Source: a virus (lineage: Duplodnaviria > Caudoviricetes). From it: a DNA stretch of 58,788 nucleotides. A program made the translations under genes and the position numbers. Positions within the stretch are counted from its first letter, which is position 1; each line of letters starts with the position of its first letter. Under the pieces are notes generated by a model. That model did not search any database and had not been told where the DNA came from. It was given only the letters and a program-made list of their open reading frames with translations. Where the stretch lies: the IMG/VR virus record IMGVR_UViG_3300007094_000198, positions 1 through 58,788 of that record; one strand, written 5' to 3'. Below, piece after piece: positions 3,639 to 52,259 of this stretch.

Positions 3639-4001
3639 TTATTCATCATCAAACAGTTTAACGACATCCGCAGGGGCGCTTTGTGGTTGTACTGTTACTG
3701 GTGCAAAAAGTTGCTGATATTGAGCATTAAGCTTAAAATCAAACAACAGTTCTTCGCACACTGTGATACTATTCTTATGGTAGTGCCAAACAGTAGCTTC
3801 GTTTTTATCAGCTAAAAACTCCTTAAAAAATAAAGGTAAAATTTGCAACTGCAAACCACCTTGTGGTTGCGGGGAAATTGCAACAACAGCTGGGTTTTTA
3901 ACTGCAAGAATTTCTTCTGTGGTTTTTTCATCAACACGTTCGCCGAGCACTGTACGGCCAACAGAATCTAGAAATGTGATTAGTTTGTTTTCTTGTTTCA
4001 T
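3639..4001 (-). CDS. Hypothetical protein, possibly Sm-like beta-barrel as seen in T4-like replication modules
   Basis: 120 aa beta-rich pattern (LITFLDSVGRTVLGE..LAVKNPAVV..LQILP). Confidence 0.45.
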   Translation of the reverse strand: MKQENKLITFLDSVGRTVLGERVDEKTTEEILAVKNPAVVAISPQPQGGLQLQILPLFFKEFLADKNEATVWHYHKNSITVCEELLFDFKLNAQYQQLFAPVTVQPQSAPADVVKLFDDE

Positions 4002-4044: not shown

Positions 4045-4953
4045 TTACTGTCTAGGGGTCTTACAAAACCCTGCATTTGCATCTTGAAGAAACTCTGGTA
4101 TTAATTCTTTTTTATTCGCTCTAACAGGGTTAATATCCAAGCTACCCCGTCTCACATAAAAACAACCTACCAACAGTTCTTCTGGTTGGAAAACTTCTAA
4201 TAAACGTACATACATACACTCGCAAATTTCCTCATGAAAATGACACTCGTTTCTAAAGCTTATTATATACTTTAATAAGCTTTCTTGATCTAGTATATTT
4301 TTAGATGAAATATGTATATAAACATCCCCTGCGTCAGGTTGCCCTGTAACTCTGCAATTAGATCTCAATAAACTACTCCTAAACCGCTGCACTACCGGCA
4401 TTAGCGCAGCATCACCTGACTGTTTTAACAGGGTTTTATCTTCATTATACGCATTAGTAGCGAGATTTGGATTAATATCATCTATACATTTAAACGTACT
4501 AAAATAACGCAAGGCGTCGAGCGTAAGTGGGGTTTCTGTAGCAGGGAAAACTCGTACCTGTACATTAGCCTCTAAAAACGTCGATAAATCTTCAGACGCT
4601 GTCTTTTCAATATTTGAAATAACATCTTGAGGGGTATCTCCGAATTTAGACATATTAAAAGAATTAAAATACAATTTAGCAGATTTCGATTCAACAATAT
4701 ATGGATTATTACACGGGTAGGTTATTTTCGCGATACCTGTAACCGGTAAACCTGTATTCGTAAGGGCGCTTATCTCCCAGTTATTCCAAATATCTACCCC
4801 TACAAAAGGTAGATCTCCTTCTTTAATATCGAGATACTCTCTATTGCTGGATCTCTTCTCTCTAACTAAAATACTTGCATCGTATTGTTTCGGTGCATCT
4901 ACTCGTTGACCGAGAACCTTGCTTATCTCTGTATTATCTAGTGTGTTGTTCAT
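4045..4953 (-). CDS. queF: QueF, NADPH-dependent preQ0 (7-cyano-7-deazaguanine) reductase, bimodular type
   Basis: QueF motif VESKSAKLYFNSFN, catalytic SNCRVTGQPD, FHEEICE, RRGSLDINP. Confidence 0.92.
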   Translation of the reverse strand: MNNTLDNTEISKVLGQRVDAPKQYDASILVREKRSSNREYLDIKEGDLPFVGVDIWNNWEISALTNTGLPVTGIAKITYPCNNPYIVESKSAKLYFNSFNMSKFGDTPQDVISNIEKTASEDLSTFLEANVQVRVFPATETPLTLDALRYFSTFKCIDDINPNLATNAYNEDKTLLKQSGDAALMPVVQRFRSSLLRSNCRVTGQPDAGDVYIHISSKNILDQESLLKYIISFRNECHFHEEICECMYVRLLEVFQPEELLVGCFYVRRGSLDINPVRANKKELIPEFLQDANAGFCKTPRQ

Positions 4954-5468
4954 AAATTGTTTTTAATTTGCTGTATTCTTTCGTTTACTGTACCGCTTAA
5001 GCGAGTCACTTTGACTTTATAATTCACTATTATAGCTTCAAAATTTTTATTTACTATATTAAAAAAATCTTGATTTGTAGATCTCTCTCCGTCGTTTACG
5101 AGTGGTAGCTCAGGTGTTATATAAAAAATCTTATCATACTTTCTTATCATTAACTCAAATAATTTAGTTATAACTACTCTTTCCGGTTGTTCAATTTTAT
5201 CAAAAAAGTACATACTATACGCTAAACCATCGAGTGCGCATCGATCTAATACCGCGTTACCTTCATATTGTAACCGCTCATAATGATTAAGCATTACGTA
5301 GAGCTGGGTTACTGCAGTTCCATTCTCGTTAATAGGAATACCTTTTTGATTTAAGTTTCTAGTTAAATTTGTAAAAAAATTATAACCAGTAAAATCAGTA
5401 TCACTTTCTAAAGCTCTTACTAAAGTACTTTTACCTTGACTCGCGCCGCCTGATATTGCTATTTTCAT
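4950..5468 (-). CDS. P-loop nucleotide kinase (AAA_28/dNMP-kinase-like)
   Basis: GGASQGKST Walker A, LDRCALDGLAY, YDKIFY and DGERST motifs. Confidence 0.75.
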   Translation of the reverse strand: MKIAISGGASQGKSTLVRALESDTDFTGYNFFTNLTRNLNQKGIPINENGTAVTQLYVMLNHYERLQYEGNAVLDRCALDGLAYSMYFFDKIEQPERVVITKLFELMIRKYDKIFYITPELPLVNDGERSTNQDFFNIVNKNFEAIIVNYKVKVTRLSGTVNERIQQIKNNL

Positions 5469-5998
5469 AATTTCTGTTTTAAAAAGTTATACCACAATTT
5501 TGTAGCTCTTTTATGTGTTAATCCAGTTATTATTTCTAAATTAAACCCTTTTACTAAGAACTCATCTTCTAAAAAAATTTCACCACTATCAAGTTCTGCA
5601 GTACACTTATGTATGGTATTCCCACCATATTCTAATTTTTGTTCAAAAATTCTCTTCTGTGGGTCTTTGCCCTTTAAAAACGGGTACCTCGTTAACGGGG
5701 CCGGGTGTAGATTGTATATATTATATTTCTCGCAAATCTCTGGTGGTACAATTCTCAAGAACCCGTGAAGCGTTACAATATCTGCCCCCTCTAATATCAC
5801 ATCATACTCTTCAATACTCGGTTTTTTTTCTAAAAAAATAAAACGATCCCACCCAGTATTTACTAAATTATAATTTACTTTTTCAACATCTTGAAATTCT
5901 CTATTTGTTGCAATTACATCTGGTAAACGCTTTAAATCCCGAGAAAGATTGTAAATTTCACTACCTGTTTGCGAAAACAACGCGACCCATCTCTTCAT
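5465..5998 (-). CDS. dpdN: PurN-like formyltransferase, candidate preQ1 formyltransferase (DpdN-like)
   Basis: FSQTGSE, LHGFLRI, NLHPA and GNTIH..ELDSGEI formyltransferase motifs; lies between a DpdA-like gene and queF. Confidence 0.7.
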   Translation of the reverse strand: MKRWVALFSQTGSEIYNLSRDLKRLPDVIATNREFQDVEKVNYNLVNTGWDRFIFLEKKPSIEEYDVILEGADIVTLHGFLRIVPPEICEKYNIYNLHPAPLTRYPFLKGKDPQKRIFEQKLEYGGNTIHKCTAELDSGEIFLEDEFLVKGFNLEIITGLTHKRATKLWYNFLKQKL

Positions 5999-6825
5999 TT
6001 AGTTACTATCTTTCTAAACATGTTAACATTATACCACACATCTTTCAACTGTTGAGTGGTGAGTTCTGCATTTATAAAATCAACTAATTTATAAGACCAT
6101 TTCTCATCAAGCCCGTGTTCCTTATACTTCTTACCTAACATACCTGCGACTATAGGGTTCGAAGTATCAATAGTATCTATATAGTGATCCAGTTCAAGAT
6201 ACTTATAAAAACCAAACTCAACAGGTAAAGAGCAACCTAAGAGATGTAATTTCTTTTTCGAGGAAAGAATTTCTTCTTGATGCAATCTATACAACGTAGC
6301 TGCTCGTCCGAGAGCATATCCCCACCATTTACCTTCGTTTGTTGAAAAATTAAGCCGCTTTGCGTATTCTCTACATTCTTCACTCAAATAATAGCTATAA
6401 TCAAAAGAAATAGCTATCTTGTTAACTAGCTCGTTACTCGAAAAATATAAATAAAGGTCCTTAATCTCTTCGTACGTTTTACCTTGTACAACAGCTATAC
6501 GCTTACCTGGTAAATCGCTATATTTTGCTATAAAGCTTTCAAAACTAACTTTAGTCTGCTCTGCTTCTTCTAAGACGTCAGGTATAATATATTCTGTCGG
6601 TCTTAAATCATTAACCCACTTTGCAAATTCGTCAGGGTTATATGATTCGCCAAGTTCGAATATACTGTTATCCAGTAACACATGTCTACCGCTTTCAACA
6701 GAAGAAAAATAATGCTCTCTATACTTTTCGTGTTGCGGTAAAAGATGTACAAGACAATAGCAATACGAATTAAAAGATTGGGAAATATCTAAAAGATCTA
6801 TCGGTACTTCATGGGAGATTCTCAT
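5995..6825 (-). CDS. dpdA: tRNA-guanine-transglycosylase-like protein (DpdA3-like 7-deazaguanine insertion/synthesis enzyme)
   Basis: TGT-like TIM-barrel motifs LLDNSIFE, IPDV, AVVQG, LHLLG and DTIDTSNP; context with queF and the polymerase. Confidence 0.78.
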   Translation of the reverse strand: MRISHEVPIDLLDISQSFNSYCYCLVHLLPQHEKYREHYFSSVESGRHVLLDNSIFELGESYNPDEFAKWVNDLRPTEYIIPDVLEEAEQTKVSFESFIAKYSDLPGKRIAVVQGKTYEEIKDLYLYFSSNELVNKIAISFDYSYYLSEECREYAKRLNFSTNEGKWWGYALGRAATLYRLHQEEILSSKKKLHLLGCSLPVEFGFYKYLELDHYIDTIDTSNPIVAGMLGKKYKEHGLDEKWSYKLVDFINAELTTQQLKDVWYNVNMFRKIVTK

Positions 6826-6842
6826 AAAAACATAATAATAAA

Positions 6843-9395
6843 TTACTCTCCAAATAAATCAAATAAATCGGTCTGTACTTCTTTAGATAAATTCGGCATT
6901 CTCCAGTTAATAGCTTCGTACACACTTTCAATCGGAGCAGCTACAATTTTTTCAAACATTTTATTATAATCAATCTTTATATACTCCTTAAACTCTTCTG
7001 GAAACTCCGCTACAAACGCAACAGCATCTAAATTGTAACGGTTTTTTGTTGCGTAAAAATACTTTATTTTTTGCCCAGAATTTATTCTTTCGTATTTACT
7101 TTCTAAATCGTGTTGCTTTAATAATAAATTATAAGCAATTGCTGCTTTAACGTGACACGGTGTACCTTTCTCAAAACCACTTAAACTAGCAGTCTTACCG
7201 TATTTTTCGTAATCCTTCACAGCTCGACGAAAAGACGCATCTTGTATATCTAAGTTTTTAAACTCTTCAAATACTTCTCTAAATATATCATTCGTTTGTT
7301 TAATATCTTTTGTGAGAAACGCAGTTTCAATAGTTTTTTTAATTAATTCTTTTACTTTCTTTGGTGTTGTTGACCTTGCTATCTCAACACCAACATACTT
7401 AAATTTGTTAACCGGAACACCTTCATCGTCTAATACACGTATAATGTAACGCTTTTTTTGTAAAAAAGTACCAACATCCGCTATAGCTTCTCTCTTAAAT
7501 TCGTAGCGCGGGTCCATTGAGTTTAGCTCAGCACTCGCCCACTCAAGTATTTCTGTATTAACAACCTTATCTAGATCATCAACTACTTCGTGTGCTTCCT
7601 TCGTAATCTGTCCTGTCTGATCTACAAGCTTAATATCACACTTTTTTAAGATAGGTTGAATTGTAATATAACATGAATCTGTGTCATTGTAAATAACGAT
7701 ATCTTCTTCGACTCCGTATTTCTTGTTTACGTAGCGTCTAATAATATCAGACCCTGCTTTAGCAACCGCTTGTCCTGTGAGGGTAATTGAAGAAGCATTA
7801 TCTATATCCATAAACGGGGAATGTTTATTAGCGAATACTCCGTAAATTGAGTTTAGAAGAATCTTTAACGTATACTGTAAGGTATCGTAATAGATAATAC
7901 CGTCTTTAGTTTCTTTATCTTTCTTCTTAGTTAGTTGAAGCTCTTTCATTTTCTTTTTAGCCTCTACTCTCTCTGCATAAATCTTATTGATTAGATTAGG
8001 ACATACTCCTTTAAATTTTTGAGAATACAATACCCCTGCTTTTGAGACTGCTACTTTTTCATTTTTAATAAATTCTTTAAACTTAGAGGTACTGATTGTT
8101 GATACTTTACCACTAACCAATTTAATATCTATTTTTTCATCTGTTTCAATGTTCCCTGTAACAATCTTACCTAATTTCGTTTCCGAAGAAATGTTTAACG
8201 TTATAATAGTATTTGGGTATAGAGAGTTAACGTCAAAACTCACTATACTATCATGTAAACCTCTAACCGGGTCTTTAACAAAACCACCTGCTAGAGAATC
8301 TCGTATTTCCTCATTAACAAAAGTAGGTATAACATAACCTTGCTCTCTAGCCTGTAATGACATTGCCCCGGTAACAATAGCAATTTTACCGAGAGCAGAT
8401 TCAAAATTCGTACAACCTTTGTAAGCTAAAAGACGCACAATGTTGAGGTAATTTAGCTTTTTATCTAACTTTATAAGCAAGTTGACATCTTGTATATTAT
8501 AATCAACAAAATTCTCCCAATCTGTCTCTGCTAGATTTGAAAGATTTGTTGCGTTAATAGCTAACTTACCTTCTTGTAGTTCATACTCGGTTATATAATT
8601 TAAAGAATATGATTCTCTATCCCCTTTAGAGAATTTTTTATATAAATCCATGTAATCAATACAACTTATACCGTTAATAACCCACTTACCTGTATCTTGA
8701 CCAAAGTCGTTATGAAACTCCCTGTATCTTAAGCTTCTTAAAGGAGACAATTGATTGATAAATTCATCATTAAGAAGTTTTCTACCTCTATTAATAATGT
8801 ACGGTATATCAAACTGTTCAGAGTTCCAGCCTACCCAAATATCTGGAGGATCAGCTTTCCAGAAATTCATAAATTTTTCAAATAACTCGCACTCAGATCT
8901 ACAGCGATGGTATCTTACGTTTTTAAGTTTGGGTGTATACTCTTTCTCAATACCCCAGGTATCTATTTGATCGGTTAACGAGTTATAAACAGTAATGAGC
9001 ACAACCGGGTCTTTCGCTTCTTTTGGTTTCGGAAACTCGTTTGGAGAAAACGTTTCAATATCAAAATAATATACTTTAAGTGGAAATTTACTAAAATCCT
9101 TATCATGAACTGTTTCATGAAACATATCTATAAGAAATTGCTGCTCGGGGGGTAAATTACCAAACAAACGTTTCTTACCAGATTCTTTTACGTATTTGTT
9201 TCTTTCAAAGCTATTTTGAAAGTTTTTTCTCTTTAAAGGGGTCTTAAATATTGATGTTGCGCAATTGGCGTTGTCTTCCTCAACAAAGAGGTACGGGGTA
9301 AAAGGCATTTCCGTGTCTATTCTTACCCCCTCTTCAGACCAAGTACGTAGAAACACAGTGCTTGTATAACTATTGTAGTAGCAGTTTCGATACAT
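6843..9395 (-). CDS. gp43: Family B DNA polymerase (gp43)
   Basis: Exonuclease motifs FDIET, GWNSEQFDIPY, YNIQD; polymerase motifs SFDVNSLYP, KILLNSIYG, YNDTDS, KKRY. Confidence 0.97.
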   Translation of the reverse strand: MYRNCYYNSYTSTVFLRTWSEEGVRIDTEMPFTPYLFVEEDNANCATSIFKTPLKRKNFQNSFERNKYVKESGKKRLFGNLPPEQQFLIDMFHETVHDKDFSKFPLKVYYFDIETFSPNEFPKPKEAKDPVVLITVYNSLTDQIDTWGIEKEYTPKLKNVRYHRCRSECELFEKFMNFWKADPPDIWVGWNSEQFDIPYIINRGRKLLNDEFINQLSPLRSLRYREFHNDFGQDTGKWVINGISCIDYMDLYKKFSKGDRESYSLNYITEYELQEGKLAINATNLSNLAETDWENFVDYNIQDVNLLIKLDKKLNYLNIVRLLAYKGCTNFESALGKIAIVTGAMSLQAREQGYVIPTFVNEEIRDSLAGGFVKDPVRGLHDSIVSFDVNSLYPNTIITLNISSETKLGKIVTGNIETDEKIDIKLVSGKVSTISTSKFKEFIKNEKVAVSKAGVLYSQKFKGVCPNLINKIYAERVEAKKKMKELQLTKKKDKETKDGIIYYDTLQYTLKILLNSIYGVFANKHSPFMDIDNASSITLTGQAVAKAGSDIIRRYVNKKYGVEEDIVIYNDTDSCYITIQPILKKCDIKLVDQTGQITKEAHEVVDDLDKVVNTEILEWASAELNSMDPRYEFKREAIADVGTFLQKKRYIIRVLDDEGVPVNKFKYVGVEIARSTTPKKVKELIKKTIETAFLTKDIKQTNDIFREVFEEFKNLDIQDASFRRAVKDYEKYGKTASLSGFEKGTPCHVKAAIAYNLLLKQHDLESKYERINSGQKIKYFYATKNRYNLDAVAFVAEFPEEFKEYIKIDYNKMFEKIVAAPIESVYEAINWRMPNLSKEVQTDLFDLFGE

Positions 9396-9406: not shown

Positions 9407-9434
9407 ATTATATGCTATATACTTTTCAAATCAA
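9407..9434 (-). promoter_or_regulatory. sigma70-like promoter for the polymerase (TTGATT-N16-TATAAT)
   Basis: Hexamers read directly, 11 nt before ATG. Confidence 0.6.
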
Positions 9435-9440: not shown

Positions 9441-10682
9441 TTATGGGTTAACTTCTCGCAAAAATTTACGCTCCGCGCTACCGTACTGTGTAAAGTAAGC
9501 TTCTTGATGCTTACCTATGTTATTTTCACTCTCTAACCAATAATTTTCTGCAAACGCTCTAGATTTCTTACAAAGCTGAACATATCTACCTTGATCTTTT
9601 AATGCGTATTTAACTTGATCAATAAGTTCGTCCCCTGTACGGTATTTTAAGAAAGCATCTTTATATGTAACCATATCCGGGCATACGCACGGTAGGCCTA
9701 TAGCTCCTGCCTCTAATAATTTAATGTTACTCTTTGCACGATTAAAATCATTATCTTGCAAAGCTGCGAATGTAAGTTGCGTTCCTGCACCTGCAACAGT
9801 ACCAGGGAAATCAGGTAGCTGTACCCACGGAGAATACACCATTTCCCCTGAGTCAATAAAAGGCTTAAGAGGTAGCGGGTAACTACCGTAGAATTGCCAC
9901 TTATAGTCTTTTCTTGTTTTAATGATGGCGCTTATAACTGCTGTAAAATCGTCTTGCTGATTGGTACGGTTTACAACATCAACGTGCGTTCCTGATGCGA
10001 AAATAGAGATAACCGGTCTCTTTTTATTTTTTTCATAACTCTTAGTTAGTTTATTAATGTCGTAGTACCTATCAAACCACCATTTTAGTAGATAGTTCGG
10101 TATAACTGTAACATTTTGATTTCTCGTCTTACTCTTAAAATAATCTCTCATGAAGTCACATGTAACTGTTACTTCATCACACATTTCAATAATATCTATA
10201 ATTGAATTTCTAATTTCATCTGAAACAAAAGCTTCTTTATTTCTATTGTAGTCAGGTATACCTTCTCTAAACACAATATCATCTACCTCGTAAATAATCT
10301 TAAACCCTATCTCTCTCGAGAGACCTTTAAGTAGTCTAACGAATTCTCGTTGAGCTGGTGTAGCTTGTCTTTGTATTTTAACTGCTTGTACGCCTTGATA
10401 GAACCGTGGATCTAAGACCATAGCTGTAGATTCAATAATAACAGCTTTTTGGTAAAGGTTTAACATTAAATTAGGAGACATACAGCGATAAAAACTACAC
10501 CCACCATAATCTGCTAAATAATTTACAGCTCTCGGTAGCCCGTGACCAGGCATCTCTGGGGGTGGTATCACGCTATCTCTAACCGGTAGAGCATGTACGG
10601 CTCCTGGTATATTGGGCGGTAGCCCTATAGGTTTACCAACTATTGTGTTTAATCCGGACTGTAAGAGAGCGTAGTTTGTCAT
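9441..10682 (-). CDS. GT-B glycosyltransferase
   Basis: GCSFYR, YEVDD, VIPN, FNRAKSNIKLLE and G.P.V motifs of GT4-like phage glycosyltransferases. Confidence 0.8.
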   Translation of the reverse strand: MTNYALLQSGLNTIVGKPIGLPPNIPGAVHALPVRDSVIPPPEMPGHGLPRAVNYLADYGGCSFYRCMSPNLMLNLYQKAVIIESTAMVLDPRFYQGVQAVKIQRQATPAQREFVRLLKGLSREIGFKIIYEVDDIVFREGIPDYNRNKEAFVSDEIRNSIIDIIEMCDEVTVTCDFMRDYFKSKTRNQNVTVIPNYLLKWWFDRYYDINKLTKSYEKNKKRPVISIFASGTHVDVVNRTNQQDDFTAVISAIIKTRKDYKWQFYGSYPLPLKPFIDSGEMVYSPWVQLPDFPGTVAGAGTQLTFAALQDNDFNRAKSNIKLLEAGAIGLPCVCPDMVTYKDAFLKYRTGDELIDQVKYALKDQGRYVQLCKKSRAFAENYWLESENNIGKHQEAYFTQYGSAERKFLREVNP

Positions 10683-12511: not shown

Positions 12512-13246
12512 TCAAGAATTATAGTCAAATTTACTATAATGTGGCTCTCTATCCCATAAAACTCTCCACATAGCTCGTGTGTGTCCTGTAATCCCACCTA
12601 TATCGATGTTTTCTGGATATGTAAACGAGACCGGTTCGTCTATTACTTTTGGGGTTAAATTACAGTTTTTTATATGTAGGCCTAAAAGCGTTTCAGGGTG
12701 CCCGCAATTTAATGTTCGTATGTTTGAAAAGACGTCGGCATATAAATCTATTGCAGCTGATCGCCCTATTGCAAATCCGTCTCTTTCAGCTAAAGGATGT
12801 ACTCCCTTAATACCTACTTGGGCGGGTATTAAGATTGTATTGTTTTCTATATTAAATTCTTCAGAATGTATTTGTCTAACAAAAAAATTATCTAAACGAG
12901 AACGTATAACAATATCGTAAACAAATCCTTGCTCCTGTTCGTAGTCTTTTTTTAATTGATTGCACATCATAACATTATACCACATCGGTATAACAGTAGG
13001 AGTGTTAAATGTAATTTCTGGTATATTAAAAATGTCTTTTTTGTAAAAATTTATAGTGTTAACTACTTGTTTTTTAGGTTTATATAGTTCCCACAGGTCA
13101 TTTACGTTTTGCTCATAACCGTCCTTGTTTTCAACCCCGTAAATAAAAATATCTGAATTATATACATCTTGAAAGAGCGTTTTAAAGTACGGGTACGTAT
13201 CTTTATAATTCCTTATTCCACCAGAAAAACAAATAGCTATTTTCAT
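12512..13246 (-). CDS. Putative glycosyltransferase-like protein
   Basis: KIAICFSG..R, YDIVIRSRLD, D.FAIG, HPETLL pattern typical of surface-polysaccharide cluster proteins. Confidence 0.55.
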   Translation of the reverse strand: MKIAICFSGGIRNYKDTYPYFKTLFQDVYNSDIFIYGVENKDGYEQNVNDLWELYKPKKQVVNTINFYKKDIFNIPEITFNTPTVIPMWYNVMMCNQLKKDYEQEQGFVYDIVIRSRLDNFFVRQIHSEEFNIENNTILIPAQVGIKGVHPLAERDGFAIGRSAAIDLYADVFSNIRTLNCGHPETLLGLHIKNCNLTPKVIDEPVSFTYPENIDIGGITGHTRAMWRVLWDREPHYSKFDYNS

Positions 13247-13277
13247 AAAGATACTAAAACTACCCCTTAACTTATAC

Positions 13278-13913
13278 CTATAATTTATACGCTACTGCTA
13301 ACCCATAATCGTCTTCGTTTAAGAAATGCTTTTCCACTCTAAACATTTCAGGGTCAATACAATCAATAAACACTCTAGGCCCTGGGTGATAGTTGGTGTC
13401 GTGAAAGAACACTATACTTGACTCTGATAAGAGATCTGTGTATAACCAATCGTTAATACAAGCGTTCACAGAATGCCAACCATCTATAAAAAGTATAGAT
13501 ATTTTGTCTATCCCGATTTGTTTAATATAATTTCTAATAATATCTTGATTAAATGAATTTTCTTTTATTGTGTAAATATTATTTTGAGAATTATTTAAAT
13601 ATGTTTTATCTTCCAAATCTATTCCGAGATATTTAATATGGTTCGGTTTGTTTGACAACAATGCATTCGTAAAAGATCTATCACCGTTTCTCGAAACACC
13701 TATCTCTATGACACCGCTAGTCATGTAATTTTTACTAATTGTTTTTACAAGATTAAAGTTGTTTACTGATACCTCTAAACTACAAGATTTTGTAAACGAA
13801 GCCCAGTCAGCGTCATTATCGTATTTTACCATTTGTGGCTTATACTTTAAACCGTTAATATCTGTACCTAACTCTAATACTTCTACTACCGTGTTATTAA
13901 TTTCTATTTGCAT
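13278..13913 (-). CDS. Class I SAM-dependent methyltransferase (Methyltransf_24-like)
   Basis: IEIGV, GID, LFIDGWHS and FFHDT motifs. Confidence 0.75.
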   Translation of the reverse strand: MQIEINNTVVEVLELGTDINGLKYKPQMVKYDNDADWASFTKSCSLEVSVNNFNLVKTISKNYMTSGVIEIGVSRNGDRSFTNALLSNKPNHIKYLGIDLEDKTYLNNSQNNIYTIKENSFNQDIIRNYIKQIGIDKISILFIDGWHSVNACINDWLYTDLLSESSIVFFHDTNYHPGPRVFIDCIDPEMFRVEKHFLNEDDYGLAVAYKL

Positions 13914-13925
13914 TTTTTAAAAAAA

Positions 13926-15155
13926 TTAAAATATTCTATAAGCTAAATCTTTTGAGTGTTGTTTATAACCCCATTTTTCAATAGCCGCTTTATATTCAGG
14001 CTTGTTTATGTCTAAATCAATAGCCTGTCTCATAGCTGCTCCACCTGATCTCGTTCCATTCGGGTGACCGTGCAAAGCGCCACCTACATTAGCCATCCAG
14101 TCAAAGCTTTCAATCGCTTTATTAATGTATTGCACTAAGCCGGGGTGCATACCACAACTCAACGCAGGAATTATTCTATAATGCCATAACACTTTAAGAG
14201 AATCTAACAATTCTTGATCATCTTGATTCATATAACCGCCAATCATACCTGCGTGTATAGAATCACAACCTGACCACCCTGCTATTTTACAGAGTACTGG
14301 CCAGTAAATATGATATGGTGACCTTTTGTCAGTAAAAAATTTATCTCCACTTTTTTGAAAATGTATCCACAAACCTGGGTTTTGTTTTCTAATAGCTCTG
14401 TATACACCGAGACCGCTCCATACATTAATATGTATACCCGTACCACCTTCGCTTGCAATAAATTTTGCTCTCTCTAAAGCAAATGGGCTATCGCCATTTA
14501 TACAAAATGTGTAGATAACATCAGAAGCGTTATTCTTTAACCAGTTTGTTATTAAAGGCACTCTTTTCTTTAGCGAACAATGCTCTGGGTCTCCTAACAA
14601 CTCATCTTCTTTAATAAAATTAACTCCCCCGTAAACCATTTCTTTTACTGCATCCAATAAAACTTCAGGTGTCATACCTACTTTAGGTTTTACTATACCA
14701 CCTAAGAACGGTTTTTGAAAAACATTACAAAAATCCCGGAACCCTTCAATACCGTATGCTGGCTTTAATGTAAAAATGCTTTCTACTTCGGGTGGTAGAT
14801 GTATGTCTAAAACATGGCATTGCTCTAATTCAAGTATATCTACTTGCCCTCCTGCTATATAACATAATATTTGAGATATACCGTCTTCCTCTAAATTAAG
14901 GTTTTCTAACGGAAAAGCAATCTCAACAATACCTTCATTTTTATTTTTTAAAATCTCTTCTTCCTCTAAAACCCTACAAGTGTGATTTTCAAACATTGCT
15001 TCAGTCTCCCAGACACTACGATTATTAGGGTTTCCTATACTTTGACCTATAGCTAAATTCCAAGACGCGTCTCTTAAAGAGGTTTTACCCTTCAAAAAAT
15101 ATTTTACTATAAAATACTTGCTCTTATCAATTTCCTTAGTAAAGATTTTAGTCAT
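13926..15155 (-). CDS. RuBisCO-like protein (form IV, RLP)
   Basis: GGIVKPKVG, FIKEDE metal/carbamate motif, IHFQ, IHAG, LSCGMH, GGALHGHP. Several carboxylase residues are substituted. Start taken at ATG 15155. Confidence 0.9.
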   Translation of the reverse strand: MTKIFTKEIDKSKYFIVKYFLKGKTSLRDASWNLAIGQSIGNPNNRSVWETEAMFENHTCRVLEEEEILKNKNEGIVEIAFPLENLNLEEDGISQILCYIAGGQVDILELEQCHVLDIHLPPEVESIFTLKPAYGIEGFRDFCNVFQKPFLGGIVKPKVGMTPEVLLDAVKEMVYGGVNFIKEDELLGDPEHCSLKKRVPLITNWLKNNASDVIYTFCINGDSPFALERAKFIASEGGTGIHINVWSGLGVYRAIRKQNPGLWIHFQKSGDKFFTDKRSPYHIYWPVLCKIAGWSGCDSIHAGMIGGYMNQDDQELLDSLKVLWHYRIIPALSCGMHPGLVQYINKAIESFDWMANVGGALHGHPNGTRSGGAAMRQAIDLDINKPEYKAAIEKWGYKQHSKDLAYRIF

Positions 15156-15183
15156 AAAATAAAACTTATTTAAATAGTGCTTT

Positions 15184-15507
15184 TTAAGCAACAATAAATT
15201 TATCTTCTATACCTGAAACTGTCTTAACTATAATTAAAACACAATCTTCTAAAAACACTGGGTCCGCTATTTCATATGGATGTATAACAAAAACGTCTCC
15301 TCCGACAAGAATTTTGCCCTGTATAGACATCTGCCCAGTTATCAATAAATTTATTTCTGTACCGATTTTATGGTAGTGGGTTTCCCATTTCTCACCTTTA
15401 TAATGTTTTTTGTAACAAACTTCAAAATTATTAGTTTTATAAGCTGTTGGTTCAAACCCTCCAACAAACCAACCATCTTTAAATTCTTCGTATTTATACA
15501 CGTCCAT
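15184..15507 (-). CDS. Cupin-domain protein
   Basis: GWFVGGFEP, HYHK..TEIN, G.M, GDVF.I.P cupin pattern. Confidence 0.75.
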   Translation of the reverse strand: MDVYKYEEFKDGWFVGGFEPTAYKTNNFEVCYKKHYKGEKWETHYHKIGTEINLLITGQMSIQGKILVGGDVFVIHPYEIADPVFLEDCVLIIVKTVSGIEDKFIVA

Positions 15508-16231
15508 ATACGTTTTCTTCAAAAAACTTTAAATCCTCTGGTGTCCCGATCGGAAAATGTAAATTATAATAATAAGGTAGAATTTTTTTACCTTTTTGTA
15601 TCATATAATTATAGGTGGGAGCTACGTAAAACTCGTTACTGTACTTTTCATTTTGCGCGATCATTTCTTCAGCTGAGTTCACAAAGTCTGTCCCTTTAGC
15701 CCAAAAGTGAATACCGTTAGTAGCTATATTACTAATAACTATTTTTTCTTTAATAACCTCAATATCTAAATTATTTGTTAATTTTAAATAACTATTTTTT
15801 TTAGATGTTGAGTGAAACGTACCAACAACCCCGTCAGCTTTATTAAGCTCTGCAAATGTTAATAAGTTTTTTAAACTAAAATCAGCGATTATTTGATCGC
15901 AATTAAGAATCAGCAACGGGGTATTGTTGTTAATTTGCTCTTTAACAAGTAAACATGTACATGCCGGTCCTTCCGTTACTATATCTATTAAATGTATGTT
16001 ATATTTAATATTTAATTTTTTAAAAATATCTAAAAATGCTTGCTGAGTGCCTATGTGTGTAGATGTAACGACCGATAAATTAATTTGCTGTAAATCTCCA
16101 AGGTTTTTAATTACTTTCTCAATCATAGGTTCCCCACATACATCTATTAAGGGTTTAAGCTGATTAGGGTGACTCTGGTTGAACCTTGAACCAGTGCCTG
16201 CCATAGGTATTACAATGTTAATTTTACTCAC
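15494..16231 (-). CDS. Sugar-phosphate nucleotidyltransferase
   Basis: IVIPMAGTGSRF, KPLI, TEGPACT, NCDQ, EK, NEFYVAP, IGTPEDL. GTG start at 16231. Confidence 0.85.
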   Translation of the reverse strand: MSKINIVIPMAGTGSRFNQSHPNQLKPLIDVCGEPMIEKVIKNLGDLQQINLSVVTSTHIGTQQAFLDIFKKLNIKYNIHLIDIVTEGPACTCLLVKEQINNNTPLLILNCDQIIADFSLKNLLTFAELNKADGVVGTFHSTSKKNSYLKLTNNLDIEVIKEKIVISNIATNGIHFWAKGTDFVNSAEEMIAQNEKYSNEFYVAPTYNYMIQKGKKILPYYYNLHFPIGTPEDLKFFEENVYGRV

Positions 16232-16248
16232 AGTTATTTTTTTAAGTT

Positions 16249-16833
16249 TTATTCTTTTATTCTTATACACCAAGCATAATCAGCGAACGTTTCTTGTAAA
16301 AAAGGCTTTAAACCTGAAAAATCAGCATAACTATCTTCAAACTCTTTCCAGTTCCAAATTTTGTGTAAATATTTTTCATTAAAAATCTCATCATTCGGGG
16401 CGTAATCGTGAGCCATAATTACATCTCCATCTTTTAAGTATTTGTAAAATGTCTGAAACTCTTGTTTTTTGTTACCACCGTCGCACAGGAGTAGTGTGCG
16501 CCCTGAGCTTTGTATTAACTCTCCTAATGTTTTTTCTATTTGAAAGACGTTTTGATTCGTGAAATTTATTTTTTCGTTATGGGAAACAAAGCGAGTCGGG
16601 TTAATATCAAATGTGTGTATTTTAGCGTTTAAACTGATACTGTGATCCGCTAGTAAGTTTGTTAACCCACCGTAATCTGTGCCTATCTCTATTATTTTTT
16701 GAAACGGGGTATTAATACATTTTTCTGCTAAAATAGTAAATGCTTTTTCAACGCCATATTTTTGTAACGCTTTTTGACCTTTATATGTAAAAACATCTAC
16801 CCCAATATCGTAATATAATTTTTCAACATTCAT
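16249..16833 (-). CDS. SAM-dependent methyltransferase (CmcI-like)
   Basis: IIEIGTDYGG, LCDGGNK, MAHDY; paralog of 51568-52221. Confidence 0.7.
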   Translation of the reverse strand: MNVEKLYYDIGVDVFTYKGQKALQKYGVEKAFTILAEKCINTPFQKIIEIGTDYGGLTNLLADHSISLNAKIHTFDINPTRFVSHNEKINFTNQNVFQIEKTLGELIQSSGRTLLLCDGGNKKQEFQTFYKYLKDGDVIMAHDYAPNDEIFNEKYLHKIWNWKEFEDSYADFSGLKPFLQETFADYAWCIRIKE

Positions 16834-16893
16834 ATTGTATATATATTAACAAATAAACATAAAGAAAGCAACCTAATAACGTCTGTATTTTGG

Positions 16894-17595
16894 CTATTCA
16901 AATATATGAAAACAACTACCGTAATTACCTGTTTGCGATCCTTGATAAATTTTTGGTTCTGTTGCCCAATAAACTGTAAAGTTATTTAACATTTGTAAGT
17001 AATTAAGTTCCCAGTCAATAACCGTAAAGAACGGTAAAGCAGTGTTTAATATTTGATTTACAGCAGAGCGTTTAATTATATAAGAATCACTACAGCGGCT
17101 GTGTTTTTGATGATTTTCGACTAAAGGCTCTCCTTTTGTATAAGATATTGAGAGCTGGCACCCTGAACCTAAATAGCATATGTCGCAGTTATCTGGTATA
17201 CAGTTCTCGTAAAAATTAATTATATCTTGCAAAGGTTCCTTAAACATAGCATCATCCTCTAAAATTAAAGACCAATTATCCGTTGTATTAAAAATTATAT
17301 GTTCAAACGTTTTATAATGTTCTAATGTTACAGCTCTGTACGCTTTACCTTTTATGGTTGTATTATCTGGGCCAATACTCACTCGCTTTTCAAACGGTAG
17401 CATTATTAAATTACGCTTATCTCGATTTTGAGAGCTAATATCAAAATAGCGTTCGTCTAATATTTCTAAGGAGTCTCTGTCGTACAAAGAGCGATACAAA
17501 AAAGGAACAGAGACTGATTGTAATTGTTCATCTAAATATTTTTTACGATCTATATTTTTATTATAATGTATAATGTATATACTATCTACTTTCAT
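16894..17595 (-). CDS. Glycosyltransferase family 25-like
   Basis: YIIHY....DRK, LEH, LILEDD, YLG, SYII and IDW motifs. Confidence 0.75.
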   Translation of the reverse strand: MKVDSIYIIHYNKNIDRKKYLDEQLQSVSVPFLYRSLYDRDSLEILDERYFDISSQNRDKRNLIMLPFEKRVSIGPDNTTIKGKAYRAVTLEHYKTFEHIIFNTTDNWSLILEDDAMFKEPLQDIINFYENCIPDNCDICYLGSGCQLSISYTKGEPLVENHQKHSRCSDSYIIKRSAVNQILNTALPFFTVIDWELNYLQMLNNFTVYWATEPKIYQGSQTGNYGSCFHIFE

Positions 17596-18215
17596 GTTTT
17601 TTTAAAAAAAAGACCTCTATGCTCGAAATGATTGCCGTCAAAGTCTGGGCAAAAAATTAAACGATCTGCTTTAGCGAACTGTTTTAATTGTTTTGTGTAC
17701 ATACTATCGTAAATAAAACCTCTCTTTTCAATCTCTTCTATCCAATAATGTGCAGGCTGACAATTAACATGATGATGGCCTCCTTGCCCTGGTCCAGCGT
17801 GCGTAAGCACTATATATTTACCTTTATCGAAGCATTTTAAAAAGTTTTCTTTGTACTGTTCTTCAATGTGTTCTACAACCTCTACACAATAAACAAGATC
17901 AAAATCGTTCTGAATTACTGGGGACCCTGCGGTAAAGTCCCAGTGTATTACGTTTTCTTTTAATAGCGAATGCTCTACAGCTACAGGGCAACCTTCGATA
18001 CCTGTAACATTAACGTTCATGTTTTTAAAATGTTGCATTGTGAAACCTCGTCCACAGCCAACATCAAGCATATTTTGTATTTTTAAATTCTTTATTAAAA
18101 ACGACCACATCGTGGGATAAGTAGTCGCTATATCTCCTTCAAAAAAATATCCTCCTAAATGACTTAACCCCCCTTCATGTCTTATCATTCCTGTTGTTGA
18201 ATTGTTTATTTTCAT
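17592..18215 (-). CDS. Class I SAM-dependent methyltransferase
   Basis: LDVGCGRG, FDLVYCVEVVEHI, PGQGGHHHVN. Confidence 0.85.
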   Translation of the reverse strand: MKINNSTTGMIRHEGGLSHLGGYFFEGDIATTYPTMWSFLIKNLKIQNMLDVGCGRGFTMQHFKNMNVNVTGIEGCPVAVEHSLLKENVIHWDFTAGSPVIQNDFDLVYCVEVVEHIEEQYKENFLKCFDKGKYIVLTHAGPGQGGHHHVNCQPAHYWIEEIEKRGFIYDSMYTKQLKQFAKADRLIFCPDFDGNHFEHRGLFFKKT

Positions 18216-18221
18216 ATGTTA

Positions 18222-19025: not shown

Positions 19026-19039
19026 AACGAATTTTTTAT

Positions 19040-20535: not shown

Positions 20536-20576
20536 TTTTTTAATTATAAAAAACTTCTCTTTAAAGCCACTCTATA

Positions 20577-24579: not shown

Positions 24580-24580
24580 A

Positions 24581-31136: not shown

Positions 31137-31463
31137 ATGAGAGCAAGCAAAAACACTAAAAAGACGGTCAAAGAGACAAAGCAAGCGTCCGTTTCTCTGA
31201 CATACTCAGAATTAAATAACGTTATAGAGGCTTTATTATTCGCTAGTTCCGTGAATGTATGCGCTGATTGGGGATACGAGCAATGCGAAAAGTTTCTTGA
31301 TTTAGCTATTAACCTTAAGGGTAAGCTACCGAAATCTCATCTCTCTCTAAAAAACGTTGTTTACTACGATGATGATAATCTTCAGGAGTCGTGGACACAA
31401 AAGCTACAGCAAAATTTTAACGTGAACACTTTTAATATTAAAACTCTTAATGAAGATGTATAA
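31137..31463 (+). CDS. Hypothetical protein
   Basis: 108 aa ORF after the promoter, overlapping queD. Confidence 0.6.
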   Translation: MRASKNTKKTVKETKQASVSLTYSELNNVIEALLFASSVNVCADWGYEQCEKFLDLAINLKGKLPKSHLSLKNVVYYDDDNLQESWTQKLQQNFNVNTFNIKTLNEDV

Positions 31464-31890
31464 GTCAACAAAAATTATAGAATTGGGTTCGTGTGCTTTT
31501 AGGCAGTGGCGAGCAGAAGATACACATTGCAAGTATGTACACGGTTATCGCTTAATGGCTAAGTTTTGGTTTGAAGGTGAGCTCGATAATCGTAACTGGG
31601 TTGTAAATTTTGGTGGGTTAAAAGATCTAAAGTCAGAGCTCCAGACCTGGTTTGATCATACATTATGCGTTGCAGCAGATGACCCTCTGCTAGATTTATT
31701 TCGACAACTTCATGATGCAGGAGGTTGTAGTCTGCGTGTGATGCCTGGAGTAGGTATTGAGTTAACCGCAGAATTTTGCTTTAAAGTAGCACAAAAGCAT
31801 ATTGATAAACTCACTGAAGGTCGTTGCAGAGTGACTAAAGTTGAAGTTTGGGAACATGAACAAAATAGCGCAATTTACACAGAAAAATAA
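31450..31890 (+). CDS. queD: QueD, 6-carboxy-5,6,7,8-tetrahydropterin synthase
   Basis: HCKYVHGY, V.FG.LK, FDH, E..AE, VEVWEHEQNSA. Confidence 0.88.
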   Translation: MKMYKSTKIIELGSCAFRQWRAEDTHCKYVHGYRLMAKFWFEGELDNRNWVVNFGGLKDLKSELQTWFDHTLCVAADDPLLDLFRQLHDAGGCSLRVMPGVGIELTAEFCFKVAQKHIDKLTEGRCRVTKVEVWEHEQNSAIYTEK

Positions 31891-31891
31891 T

Positions 31892-32650
31892 ATGATAGAC
31901 AATAATACCGAGACACTGTATCTTTCAGATGACAAGATTTTTTATACATTAGAAGGAGAAGGAGAATACGTAGGTAAACCCTCTGTTTTTATGAGACTTT
32001 CTATGTGTAATTTAACTTGCAAAGGTTTTGCATCTAAAGACTCTCCTAATGGGTGTGATTCTTACATTTCGTGGTCGGTGAAAAATAGAATGACGTTTAA
32101 TGAGGTCTTTCAAATGCTTGAAGACAAGCAATACATAGAGCATTTAAGAAACGGTGCAATCTTTAAACTTACAGGTGGCGAACCTCTTGTGAGTCAAAAG
32201 CAGTTACTCAAGTTTATTAAATCATTTGTCATAAAATATCGCTTCACACCTAGAATTGATTTCGAGACAAACGCCACCATTATGCCTGATGAAGAGTGGG
32301 TTACGGGGTATAAAGCCACATTTACAACATCCCCGAAGCTTTCAACGAACGGAGACCCTGTCGAAAAGACTTATAAACCTGACGTGTTGAGATGGCATGT
32401 TGATCATAACTCAGGTTTTAAATTTGTAATTACATCTGATAAAGATATTGAAGAAATTTGGAAGAAGTATGTTTTAGATTATGAAGGTATAAATGTGCCA
32501 CTTCAACGGGTTTGGTTTATGCCGTGCTGCGGTTCTAGAGAAGAACATATTGAACGTGCACCAGCTGTAGCTGAGTACGCAAAAGCTATGCACGTTAATT
32601 TTAGCCCGAGATTACATCTATTACTTTGGAATATGGCACTACGAGTATGA
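31892..32650 (+). CDS. queE: QueE, 7-carboxy-7-deazaguanine synthase (radical SAM)
   Basis: FYTLEGEG..G.PSVF.R, CNLTC..GCDS, TGGEP, ETN, SPKL, FKFV, SPRLH. Confidence 0.92.
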   Translation: MIDNNTETLYLSDDKIFYTLEGEGEYVGKPSVFMRLSMCNLTCKGFASKDSPNGCDSYISWSVKNRMTFNEVFQMLEDKQYIEHLRNGAIFKLTGGEPLVSQKQLLKFIKSFVIKYRFTPRIDFETNATIMPDEEWVTGYKATFTTSPKLSTNGDPVEKTYKPDVLRWHVDHNSGFKFVITSDKDIEEIWKKYVLDYEGINVPLQRVWFMPCCGSREEHIERAPAVAEYAKAMHVNFSPRLHLLLWNMALRV

Positions 32651-37785: not shown

Positions 37786-38424
37786 TTATTCGTAAAACGG
37801 TGTTAAAAGACTCGGGGAATCATCACTATAGAAATTACCACTCTCGTTAACGTATAGCTTAATTTGCTCACATCTAGCATTTGGATGCATATCTAGTGTT
37901 ATAACTGCAGGACAATCACTTAAAGGAAAAAACTGGCCAGTGCTCTTTTCATAAGTAGTGACGAGCGCTCGTATAATATTATCTATCTCCACTCTATATG
38001 TCTCATCTTTATCTCTATTCTTTTTCGGGGTAAGCTTTATGCTTTCATGTATAGGTAAATAAAAAATAATATCGTATAACTTCAACGTCTCAGCAGCTAT
38101 TGTCTTACTCGTACGTATAAAATCATCAGATACCTTACCGTTTGCATTTAACCATAGAGAATACGCAATATTATCTATAACACAACGATCAAAAACCACA
38201 TTGGTCTCTCCAGTTGACAGGCATCCCTGTACTTCATCAACTAAAGCGTTTAAAATTACACGTTGACTCTCCTCAGTACCCTTTTTATTAAGCTTTAACT
38301 TTTTCTCTTGTATTAAATCCCTGTAAGTTTTTTTAGGTAAATTATACATTGGCCATTTAGTTAAAAACTCCTGTATTAATGTAGATTTACCTACAGACTG
38401 AGACCCCATGAATGCAATTTTCAT
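37786..38424 (-). CDS. P-loop nucleotide kinase (AAA_28/dNMP-kinase-like), second copy
   Basis: GSQSVGKST, FDRCVIDNIAY, YDIIFY. Confidence 0.75.
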   Translation of the reverse strand: MKIAFMGSQSVGKSTLIQEFLTKWPMYNLPKKTYRDLIQEKKLKLNKKGTEESQRVILNALVDEVQGCLSTGETNVVFDRCVIDNIAYSLWLNANGKVSDDFIRTSKTIAAETLKLYDIIFYLPIHESIKLTPKKNRDKDETYRVEIDNIIRALVTTYEKSTGQFFPLSDCPAVITLDMHPNARCEQIKLYVNESGNFYSDDSPSLLTPFYE

Positions 38425-52221: not shown

Positions 52222-52259
52222 ACGTATAAATATGTTTTTAAGATTAAAAAATCGAGCTC

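Follow-up and report, generated by a model that had tools for sequence, protein, structure and literature searches.

A DpdA3/DpdN-type 7-deazaguanine cassette with a linked P-loop kinase in a fragment of an uncultured T4-like phage, and its predicted DNA base

What base might stand in for guanine in the DNA of a phage whose DNA polymerase gene is followed by genes for a guanine transglycosylase, a PurN-like formyltransferase, a P-loop kinase and the reductase QueF, and at what level would these proteins act? The question is raised by positions 4045 to 9395 (minus strand) of the IMG/VR virus record IMGVR_UViG_3300007094_000198, analysed here over its whole length as a linear stretch of 58,788 bases (hereafter the window), for which CheckV estimates a completeness of 28%. 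The region is quite probably a 7-deazaguanine DNA-modification cassette of the DpdA3/DpdN type, and its predicted product is DNA carrying 7-(formylamino)methyl-7-deazaguanine (fdPreQ1). Such a cassette has already been described by Cui et al. (2023, NAR 51:9214, PMC10516641), and the fdPreQ1 prediction is sound and not new. The little-noticed part is the pairing of DpdA3 with a kinase, which offers a handle on 100% replacement of guanine and on the failure of DpdA3 alone in E. coli.

Organisation of the cassette

Five open reading frames (ORFs) on the minus strand form the string. The first (6843..9395) encodes a T4 gp43-like family B DNA polymerase, PolB, of 850 amino acids (Pfam DNA_pol_B, 6.6e-28; DNA_pol_B_exo1, 1.3e-21), and 17 bases separate its stop codon from the start of a gene for a 276-residue protein (5995..6825), identified below by fold and homology as a DpdA3-type guanine transglycosylase with the tRNA-guanine transglycosylase (TGT)/DpdA fold and without the zinc subdomain. 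Then follow genes for a DpdN-type PurN-like formyltransferase of 177 residues (5465..5998; Formyl_trans_N, 1.6e-10), a small P-loop kinase of 172 residues (4950..5468; AAA_28, 3.5e-14) and a bimodular QueF of 302 residues, the reductase that converts preQ0 to preQ1 (4045..4953; QueF_N, 8.8e-32; QueF, 9.1e-18). Stop and start codons overlap as a four-base ATGA at all three junctions, namely DpdA3/DpdN, DpdN/kinase and kinase/QueF. Two further genes of 7-deazaguanine synthesis lie on the plus strand, encoding the 6-carboxytetrahydropterin synthase QueD (31450..31890; PTPS, 1.1e-16) and a QueE-like radical SAM enzyme, a CDG synthase (31841..32650; best NCBIfam matches to QueE models; Fer4_12, 2.7e-05). 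This is the arrangement proposed in an earlier note on this DNA, which had listed contiguous polymerase, TGT-like, PurN-like, kinase and queF genes, the last four with overlapping stop and start codons, and had placed queD and queE at 31.4-32.6 kb.

The same note had put the string behind one promoter. A sigma-70-like match, a possible operon start, lies at 9407..9434 (minus strand; TTGATT-16-TATAAT, 10 of 12 positions) in the 45-base gap upstream of PolB, and a sequence scan found no terminator-like site between the cassette genes. Promoter-like sites in the region numbered 49 versus 38.7 +/- 4.7 in shuffled sequences, as counted with a sigma-70 consensus that may not be that of the host. Because the scan is barely above the shuffles and the host may use another type of promoter, one promoter for the PolB-to-QueF string is weakly supported, as a consensus match.

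The same four genes, DpdA3, DpdN, a 'thymidylate kinase' and QueF, stand in the same order and orientation in the Flavobacterium phage immuto_2-6A, with identities to the window proteins of 40, 44, 32 and 43%, respectively, over their full length. This phage also encodes QueD and QueE and has a DNA polymerase gene nearby. Its DNA contains 345,000 fdPreQ1 per 10^6 nucleotides, shows neither a dG peak nor dPreQ1, and resists restriction enzymes that have G in their site, as reported by Cui et al. (PMC10516641). The window cassette is distinct from that of immuto in its genome backbone, which is T4-like with the family B polymerase directly upstream, whereas the immuto polymerase is of family A and lies two small genes downstream. 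In immuto, genes for FolE, a phosphoribosyltransferase and a PRA-PH/MazG-like hydrolase are located just upstream of dpdA. Family searches of the window found neither the FolE nor the PRA-PH/MazG-like family, and BLASTP found no counterpart of the immuto phosphoribosyltransferase, for which no family search of the window was made. The two DpdA3 proteins also belong to separate, well-supported clades.

The transglycosylase DpdA3

Pfam and NCBIfam searches assigned the 276-residue protein to no family, and PHROGs placed it in one unnamed family only. A profile of 33 homologues compared with all PDB sequences retrieved no TGT, its best matches being at chance level (E 0.07 and worse). An AlphaFold2 model built from the 33 homologues reached a pLDDT of 94.6, and the 50 best matches of this model in a Foldseek search of the PDB were all tRNA-guanine transglycosylases, with E-values down to 6.6e-8. 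VIA-align superposed the model, with a root-mean-square deviation (rmsd) of about 3 Å over approximately 230 of its 276 residues, on the archaeosine TGT ArcTGT (1iq8, Z 17.9), the bacterial DNA preQ0 insertase DpdA (7ui4, Z 17.4, rmsd 3.2 Å over 230 residues) and a bacterial TGT (2pwv, Z 17.0). The modelled structure confirms a TGT/DpdA fold, identified by fold and not by sequence families, and the TGT-like character that the earlier note had ascribed to 5995-6825, which hinged on the presence of such a fold, is borne out.

Among cultured phages, a tblastn search with the protein returned 24 records, comprising four Flavobacterium immuto phages (39.9% identity, annotated as 'DNA guanine transglycosylase'), 14 Campylobacter phages of the CP220 group (about 38-39%) and six Bacillus phages (approximately 24%). 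Identity to the immuto DpdA is 40%, with an E-value of 2e-64, and hhalign aligned the family profile with CGPG_00065 of phage phiST, the founding DpdA3, at 98% probability (E 1.6e-13). The protein collection contained 2273 relatives at E <= 0.001; none of the 120 of them that were listed has a Pfam domain.

Two aspartates, D52 in LDNS and D220 in DTSNP, are invariant in the 33 close sequences, and the Asp in LDN(S/G) and that in (S/T)xD(T/S) are invariant in 12 sequences from eight lineages. Judging by the shape of the motifs, D52 and D220 may correspond to the catalytic Asp102 and Asp280 of TGT. No cysteine cluster is conserved among the 33 members, so DpdA3 is without the TGT zinc site; all 33 proteins are acidic, with a median isoelectric point (pI) of 5.42. 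The gene is co-encoded with those of 7-deazaguanine synthesis, queF being in the same overlapping string and queD and queE in the same window. A tRNA-directed role in queuosine salvage was considered and set aside, as the nearest characterised relatives all belong to phage systems that modify DNA, and a tRNA scan of the 58,788-base window found no tRNA genes.

Two of these systems make other final bases. The CP220 group, with dADG in its DNA, and phiST, with dDG, have transglycosylases of the same DpdA3 subfamily as the window (about 39% identity and the hhalign match given above, respectively), and in both a small P-loop kinase gene adjoins. Complete replacement of G is reported for both (PMC10516641). 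Both differ from the window in having no QueF and no DpdN. In addition, the kinase of phiST is of the AAA_18 family and is encoded upstream, DpdL and MazG being present as well, while CP220 has an HD-AAA_33 protein.

The formyltransferase DpdN

The 177-residue protein matches Pfam Formyl_trans_N at 41.4 bits (cut-off 26.1) and is 44% identical over 175 of 177 residues (E 3e-50) to YP_010114479.1 of immuto, which Cui et al. predict to be the preQ1/dPreQ1 formyltransferase DpdN, a PurN paralogue of the short form placed in their group 1 of PurN-like formyltransferases; three uncultured phages with DpdN are already listed in the same paper (PMC10516641). The phage search found full-length relatives in the four immuto records only (98% coverage, 147 bits), while other phage PurN genes match over the catalytic core alone (41-51% coverage, 45-53 bits). 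Residues Asn96, His98 and Asp137 are invariant in 28 sequences of the DpdN family and align with the PurN core in structures 5cjj and 1c3e; their PurN counterparts are presumably the triad residues 106, 108 and 144.

The resemblance to E. coli PurN (1c3e/1cde) comprises the Formyl_trans_N core, the Asn-His-Asp triad and the FSGNGSN loop, with which an invariant N-terminal FSQxGSE loop of DpdN aligns. The proteins differ in length (about 210 residues in PurN versus 177), and a core of approximately 85 residues alone aligns (34 bits). The PurN equivalog model TIGR00639 gave 34.6 bits against a cut-off of 150.1, and the window protein is not classed as PurN. Further invariant residues are W4, P26, N32, a KGKDPQ stretch and W169. 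The PurN-like phosphate-loop motif, being invariant, fits a nucleotide substrate for DpdN, as judged from the alignment.

Synthesis of the 7-deazaguanine precursor

Both Pfam domains of QueF scored above their cut-offs (QueF_N 110.2 bits, QueF 64.7 bits), and the protein is 43% identical to immuto QueF with an E-value of 1e-84. Conserved in this alignment are an ESKSxKLY stretch and the Cys of SNCRVTxQPD, which we take to be the QueF motifs usually so named. The window QueD is 46% identical to that of immuto, and the QueE is weakly similar to those of immuto and Bacillus phage BSP7. The plus-strand block holding queD and queE starts with a gene for a SegE-type GIY-YIG homing endonuclease (29050-29490, plus strand; 2.1e-29).

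The remaining precursor genes, for FolE and QueC, plausibly lie elsewhere in the phage genome, because both are carried by two near-complete relatives, G004 (163 kb, with terminal repeats) and G005. In G004 both genes map inside the sequence surrounding its dpdA3 cassette (locus L045).

Distribution and variants of the cassette

A pattern search based on the family alignment was run over IMG/VR to give a first sample of related loci; at least 593 stretches were confirmed, the best 80 of which were kept. The order DpdN-kinase-QueF after DpdA3 was found in 48 of the 52 close loci with at least 3.2 kb of downstream sequence; two of the others had kinase and QueF, and two the kinase only. A quick IQ-TREE phylogeny was calculated for 112 distinct DpdA3 proteins, keeping only rows with three genes called downstream; the careful tree search is unfinished. 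The neighbours of each row were coded N for DpdN, K for kinase and F for QueF, with '-' for absence. The commonest state was NKF (61 rows), followed by -KF (29), N-F (7), none (6), -K- (4), NK- (2) and --F (1), in addition to the outliers phiST and MA9V-3. The window DpdA3 groups with that of locus L002 in a clade of 29 rows (SH-aLRT 99), 25 of which are NKF, and the immuto protein is in a different clade (SH-aLRT 97). Profile labelling of neighbours revealed about ten loci with the order FolE-DpdA3-DpdN-QueF-QueC and no kinase.

At the DNA level, a search of cultured phages with the 5.35-kb region matched a 100-base patch of QueF alone, 74% identical to immuto, and the cassette therefore has no close cultured relative in that set. 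The four-gene set is thus not limited to one Flavobacterium phage; it is common in uncultured phages, many of the loci being on large T4-like contigs. Given these contigs, the 2273 relatives and the stretches confirmed in IMG/VR, fully G-substituted DNA may be common in uncultured aquatic phages, which is relevant to how phages escape restriction, to sequencing and to the nanopore base-calling of viromes.

Predicted DNA base

The best prediction, because of the four-gene collinearity with immuto, the TGT/DpdA fold and the PurN triad kept in DpdN, is virion DNA in which fdPreQ1 would take the place of most or all dG. Gene identities, folds, conserved catalytic residues and collinearity with a phage of measured DNA were obtained here; every chemical step in this phage, the order of base exchange and formylation, and the extent of replacement are what we infer from them. 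GTP would be converted to preQ0 by FolE, QueD, QueE and QueC, with FolE and QueC supplied from elsewhere in the genome or by the host, and QueF would reduce preQ0 to preQ1. The transglycosylase DpdA3 would swap guanine for the deazaguanine base, and the PurN-like DpdN would formylate the aminomethyl side chain, with a folate as formyl donor. In the DNA, fdPreQ1 would blunt restriction enzymes that read G. As far as sequence goes, the collinearity with immuto, the full-length DpdN match and the TGT/DpdA fold support the proposal of the earlier note that fdPreQ1 replaces dG in this phage. The background given there is also essentially right, in that Cui et al. name the immuto transglycosylase DpdA3 and its PurN paralogue DpdN and report fdPreQ1 as measured (PMC10516641).

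Several observations weigh against this prediction. It is founded on homology and gene order, not on chemistry, and at 32-44% identity to the characterised cassette the substrate or product could have drifted. For DpdN itself the published activity is a prediction, and attempts to get DpdA3 working in E. coli were unsuccessful (PMC10516641). On the side of precursor synthesis, QueF scored 244.6 bits with TIGR03138, below the cut-off of 293.45; the five best NCBIfam matches of QueE are all QueE models (best 5.5e-13), each below its cut-off; and family searches did not find FolE or QueC in this 28%-complete fragment. The gene content of relatives is a further point. A large clade, with 29 of the 112 tree rows and many loci (L102-L172, e.g. 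L118:3849-6094), has DpdA3, kinase and QueF without DpdN, and would be predicted from its genes to carry plain dPreQ1. Three sister loci in the subclade of the window (L023, L027 and L030) have DpdA3 and kinase followed by a 120-residue gene and RecA, with no DpdN or QueF between, so that the same backbone occurs with different cassette contents. These loci and the DpdN-less clade together indicate that the final base varies among close relatives.

The linked P-loop kinase

The 172-residue protein matches AAA_28 at 53.8 bits (cut-off 27) and is assigned to phrog_2107, 'thymidylate kinase', in PHROGs. No dTMP-kinase equivalog was matched in NCBIfam, where nadR_NMN_Atrans alone was hit, at 19 bits; the thymidylate kinase name thus traces to phrog_2107 and to record annotations rather than to such an equivalog. 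Identity to immuto gp203 and CP220 gp057 is 32-33% (E 1e-26 for immuto). Invariant residues are G7, G12, K13 and T15 of the Walker A motif, R37, Q55, D75-R76, D80, Y84, D126, R129 and R164. An AlphaFold2 model (pLDDT 88.9) matched dCK, dAK and TMPK in Foldseek with E-values from 3.6e-7 to 1e-5, and also the ribosylnicotinamide kinase domain of NadR (TMq 0.77, rmsd 2.9). By its modelled fold the protein is a small-molecule nucleoside or nucleotide kinase, its substrate being predicted as a class only.

The kinase gene follows DpdA3 in all 60 close IMG/VR loci with at least 1.9 kb of downstream sequence. In cultured phages, relatives with more than 30% identity are confined to 18 records (14 Campylobacter and four Flavobacterium), equal in taxa and counts to the full-length DpdA3 matches. 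More distant AAA_28 relatives (23-27% identity) come from Streptomyces phages, in 52 records; in the Jay2Jay region, the only one of these inspected, the kinase gene has no neighbouring DpdA3. Kinases of other families accompany distant DpdA3 genes. The neighbour in phiST, CGPG_00066, is an AAA_18 protein (29.8 bits, cut-off 29.4) encoded upstream of DpdA3; an AAA_18/AAA_33 kinase flanks DpdA3 in Chryseobacterium phage MA9V-3 and a T4-type DNMK (dNMP kinase) in Aeromonas phage Ahp1; and a distant P-loop protein is encoded nearby in Bacillus phage BSP7 (hhalign E 1.4e-4, 52% probability) and Weizmannia phage Youna2.

In a wider but coarser count of such neighbours, genes were called mechanically and ORFs with an N-terminal Walker A motif followed by 115-225 residues were recorded. 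Of the 69 evaluable loci of the first sample, 61 have a Walker-A ORF no more than two genes from DpdA3, whereas more distant genes, taken as background, yielded 5 in 626. A second sample comprised 78 IMG/VR loci selected by how similar their DpdA3 is to that of phiST; here the figures are 48 of 69 loci (32 directly adjacent) and 4 of 371 genes. Relative to this within-locus background, small P-loop ORFs are enriched 60- to 100-fold beside DpdA3. The link between DpdA3 and a kinase is therefore strong but not universal across DpdA3 lineages. Of the 112 tree rows, the seven N-F, one --F and six none rows have no AAA_28 kinase in the cluster, and the kinase-less N-F forms, nested among NKF relatives, require at least three changes. 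Searched with the kinase profile, five records whose cassette lacks the gene, including one that is 94% complete, gave no match, though no positive control was run alongside.

Cui et al. set CGPG_00066 aside as having no homologue in other deazaguanine phages, and the word 'kinase' occurs nowhere in the main text of their paper (PMC10516641). The literature searched, which did not extend to subscription journals or to the supplements of that paper, contained no treatment of a kinase-DpdA3 link or of a nucleotide-level route for DpdA3. We take the kinase to be a functional partner of DpdA3, one that may phosphorylate a deazaguanine deoxynucleoside or nucleotide. Complex prediction for the pair scored 0.00 in two runs without controls, which speaks neither for nor against binding.

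A second AAA_28 paralogue in the window (37786..38424, minus strand; 3.7e-12) adjoins genes for Hsp20 and NrdA/NrdB and aligns with the cassette-kinase profile at 99.5% probability in hhalign (E 1.3e-22). From this similarity it is possibly a further nucleotide kinase.

Polymerase and nucleotide-metabolism neighbours

A polymerase gene is a frequent neighbour of DpdA3, and its family differs between lineages. In the clade of the window, family B polymerases adjoin DpdA3 or are nearby; a PolB with at least 45% identity is found no more than 2 kb upstream of DpdA3 in 33 of the 62 loci with at least 2.7 kb of upstream sequence, and within 100 bases in 19. The cassette had been called polymerase-coupled in the earlier note; what these 33 of 62 close loci display is gene adjacency, and a functional coupling would be conjecture. 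Family A polymerases are located near DpdA3 in immuto, BSP7, Youna2 and loci L134, L136 and L137, while phiST and related phages have a split Pol III alpha there.

The phiST polymerase is absent from the annotation of its record. At NC_020842 41629-45229 (L095:5630-9230, minus strand), where no coding sequence is listed, two ORFs of 525 and 673 residues with PHP, DNA_pol3_alpha, finger and HHH_6 domains together make up the split Pol III alpha, one small gene from DpdA3.

Genes of the deoxynucleoside triphosphate (dNTP) hydrolase type are also encountered. MazG is encoded beside DpdA3 in phiST, and a PRA-PH/MazG-like protein beside it in immuto and directly upstream in six IMG/VR loci. CP220 has an HD and AAA_33 fusion near DpdA3, and DCD/dUTPase-like genes lie beside it in Ahp1 and in loci L098-L100; the DCD/dUTPase-like gene of L045 is about 3.7 kb away and does not adjoin. 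In locus L101 (2535-6265, plus strand), a divergent DpdA3-like gene is flanked by a class II (B12-type) ribonucleotide reductase gene on one side and a trimeric dUTPase gene on the other, and a family A polymerase is encoded two genes further upstream. Searches of the window for the HD, MazG, PRA-PH and DCD families, again in a 28%-complete fragment, gave no match. The window does have ribonucleotide reductase genes, two dCMP-deaminase-like genes and the second AAA_28 paralogue. A phmmer search of PDB sequences gave no match for two other DpdA3 neighbours, proteins of 748 (L118) and 167 residues (L098).

The two dCMP/cytidine-deaminase-like genes adjoin each other at 42164-42989 (minus strand; 1.5e-05 and 5.7e-14), downstream of NrdA/NrdB.

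Level of action and alternative explanations

Explanations differ as to the level of the base exchange. It is possible, and we hold this tentatively, that the cassette acts before replication, with free deoxyguanosine, as nucleoside or nucleotide, as the substrate of base exchange by DpdA3, DpdN formylating the small molecule in the manner of PurN with GAR, the kinase raising it to the triphosphate and the polymerase incorporating it. The end product would be fdPreQ1 DNA, as predicted above; only the level of action differs. With similar reserve this may be widened to DpdA3 systems generally, with dGTP-clearing hydrolases (MazG, HD or dUTPase-like) taking part. Replacement of 100% of the guanine would then be explicable, because the modified triphosphate would be built in by the polymerase. 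T4 replaces a base before replication by means of the dCTPase gp56, the dCMP hydroxymethylase gp42 and the dNMP kinase gp1, and the surroundings of DpdA3 in several phages resemble this set by function only, combining a dNTP hydrolase, a base-changing enzyme, a nucleotide kinase and a polymerase; the base-changing enzymes are not homologous.

The fold of the kinase, shared with deoxynucleoside kinases, TMPK and the NadR ribosylnicotinamide kinase, together with its invariant Walker A, DR motif, Gln and lid Arg, favours such a nucleotide-level route. So do its occurrence after DpdA3 in 60 of 60 loci and the Walker-A counts of 61/69 and 48/69, the kinases of other Pfam families flanking distant DpdA3 genes in phiST, MA9V-3 and Ahp1 (with the distant P-loop protein of BSP7), and the hydrolase-type genes near DpdA3 in phiST, immuto, six IMG/VR loci, CP220, Ahp1, L045 and L101. 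Polymerases of families A, B and C adjoin DpdA3 or are near it. The lack of a conserved cysteine cluster in DpdA3, the acidity of all 33 members and the DpdN FSQxGSE loop aligned with FSGNGSN of PurN are in keeping with it as well. Complete replacement is reported only for DpdA3 phages, DpdA3 failed in E. coli, and ADG nucleoside is reported in infected cells (PMC10516641).

Against a nucleotide-level route stands the fact that all characterised TGT/DpdA enzymes use a polynucleotide as substrate; insertion after replication is also what Cui et al. propose for every DpdA family (PMC10516641). The window, though a fragment, has no HD, MazG, PRA-PH or DCD match. The AAA_28 kinase is missing in 14 of the 112 rows, with at least three losses nested among kinase-bearing relatives, and the profile search of five kinase-less records, one 94% complete, gave no AAA_28 match, with no positive control. 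Genes of nucleotide metabolism and replication often cluster in large phages, so the adjacency may be modular, and an acidic pI is weak evidence, the RecA of the same window having a pI of 5.67. No TGT-family protein is known to act at the nucleotide level. If true, this route would make DpdA3 the first enzyme of the TGT family to act on a free nucleoside or nucleotide and would overturn the view that 7-deazaguanine DNA marks are all post-replicative.

Somewhat unlikely in our judgement is a post-replicative scheme in which DpdA3 acts on DNA while the P-loop protein hydrolyses ATP to drive insertion, like DpdB. The bacterial DpdA requires the ATPase DpdB for preQ0 insertion into DNA (Gedara et al. 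2023), and the Salmonella Montevideo DpdA/DpdB system resembles the window in the TIM-barrel TGT fold (7ui4, Z 17.4) and in coupling a base-exchange enzyme to an ATP-using partner. The tight linkage of the P-loop gene to DpdA3 and the failure of DpdA3 alone in E. coli (PMC10516641) agree with such a scheme. The bacterial DpdA differs in being about 140 residues longer (413 versus 276) and in its cysteines, a conserved cluster of which the window DpdA3 does not have, and less than 0.1% of G is replaced in bacterial DNA, in contrast to complete replacement in DpdA3 phages (PMC10516641). More directly, the window partner has the fold and invariant residues of small-molecule nucleoside/nucleotide kinases, not the fold of DpdB, a T4-type dNMP kinase occupies the same position in Ahp1, and the gene is missing in some lineages.

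More doubtful still, the kinase could be a general dNMP or nucleoside kinase of the nucleotide pool, placed here by gene clustering and with no specific role in modification. This would accord with the distant AAA_28 relatives of the 52 Streptomyces phage records, the Jay2Jay region having no neighbouring DpdA3, with the second window paralogue beside the ribonucleotide reductase genes, and with the loss of the kinase in some DpdA3 lineages. It sits poorly with the confinement of cultured relatives above 30% identity to the 18 records that match full-length DpdA3 in taxa and counts, with the ATGA overlaps on both sides of the kinase gene, with the 60- to 100-fold enrichment beside DpdA3, and with kinases of different families in the same position elsewhere.

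The least likely alternative is that the DNA carries dPreQ1 or another derivative and that DpdN serves folate or purine metabolism by formylating glycinamide ribonucleotide: PurN-like auxiliary genes in cyanophages and other phages, the predicted status of DpdN activity (PMC10516641) and the related clades without DpdN would allow it, and against it are the score of 34.6 bits with the PurN equivalog (cut-off 150.1), full-length similarity to DpdN only, translational coupling of the gene between DpdA3 and kinase, a position kept in 48 of 52 loci, and the fdPreQ1 DNA without dPreQ1 of immuto, which has the same arrangement (PMC10516641).

Genomic context and other features of the window

The record has the appearance of a piece of the genome of an uncultured phage distantly related to T4, because the PolB is 31% identical to its nearest cultured relatives and genes for RecA/UvsX-like and Rad50-like proteins, a primase, a helicase, ribonucleotide reductase and a 5'-3' exonuclease are also present. 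Those relatives are Pelagibacter phage HTVC008M (31% identity with 98% query coverage) and cyanomyoviruses. The G+C content is about 34% across the window apart from the first 2 kb; positions 1-2000 have 45% and encode an AraC-type HTH_18 protein at 573-1094, and may be of foreign origin or reflect a joining of sequences during assembly at this end of the contig.

Directly downstream of QueF, a gene for a 120-residue protein (3639..4001, minus strand) is kept in the clade of the window and follows QueF in most close loci with 43-74% identity. Searches of Pfam, NCBIfam and PHROG found no match for it, and Atlas returned viral hypothetical clusters only; whether it is part of the modification system is uncertain. 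On the other side of the string, between the Rad50-like gene and PolB, a gene for a 413-residue glycosyltransferase-like protein (9441-10682, minus strand; phrog_7162, weak Glyco_trans_1_2) keeps its position across the clade at 59-82% identity.

The window also contains two long blocks of genes of the sugar-modification type (12512-25198 and 49211-58263, minus strand), which include NTP_transferase, several methyltransferases, Glyco_transf_25, RXYLT1_C, TylF and HtrL, a HAD-NTP_transferase fusion and a GlcNAc transferase, and which may act on the capsid, the host surface or DNA. Within a block of nucleotidyltransferase, methyltransferase and glycosyltransferase genes lies a gene for a RuBisCO large-subunit-like protein of 422 residues (13926-15194, minus strand), with Pfam RuBisCO_large at 3e-31 and the N-terminal domain; in NCBIfam it matched type III RuBisCO best, with 152 bits, which falls far short of the cut-off.

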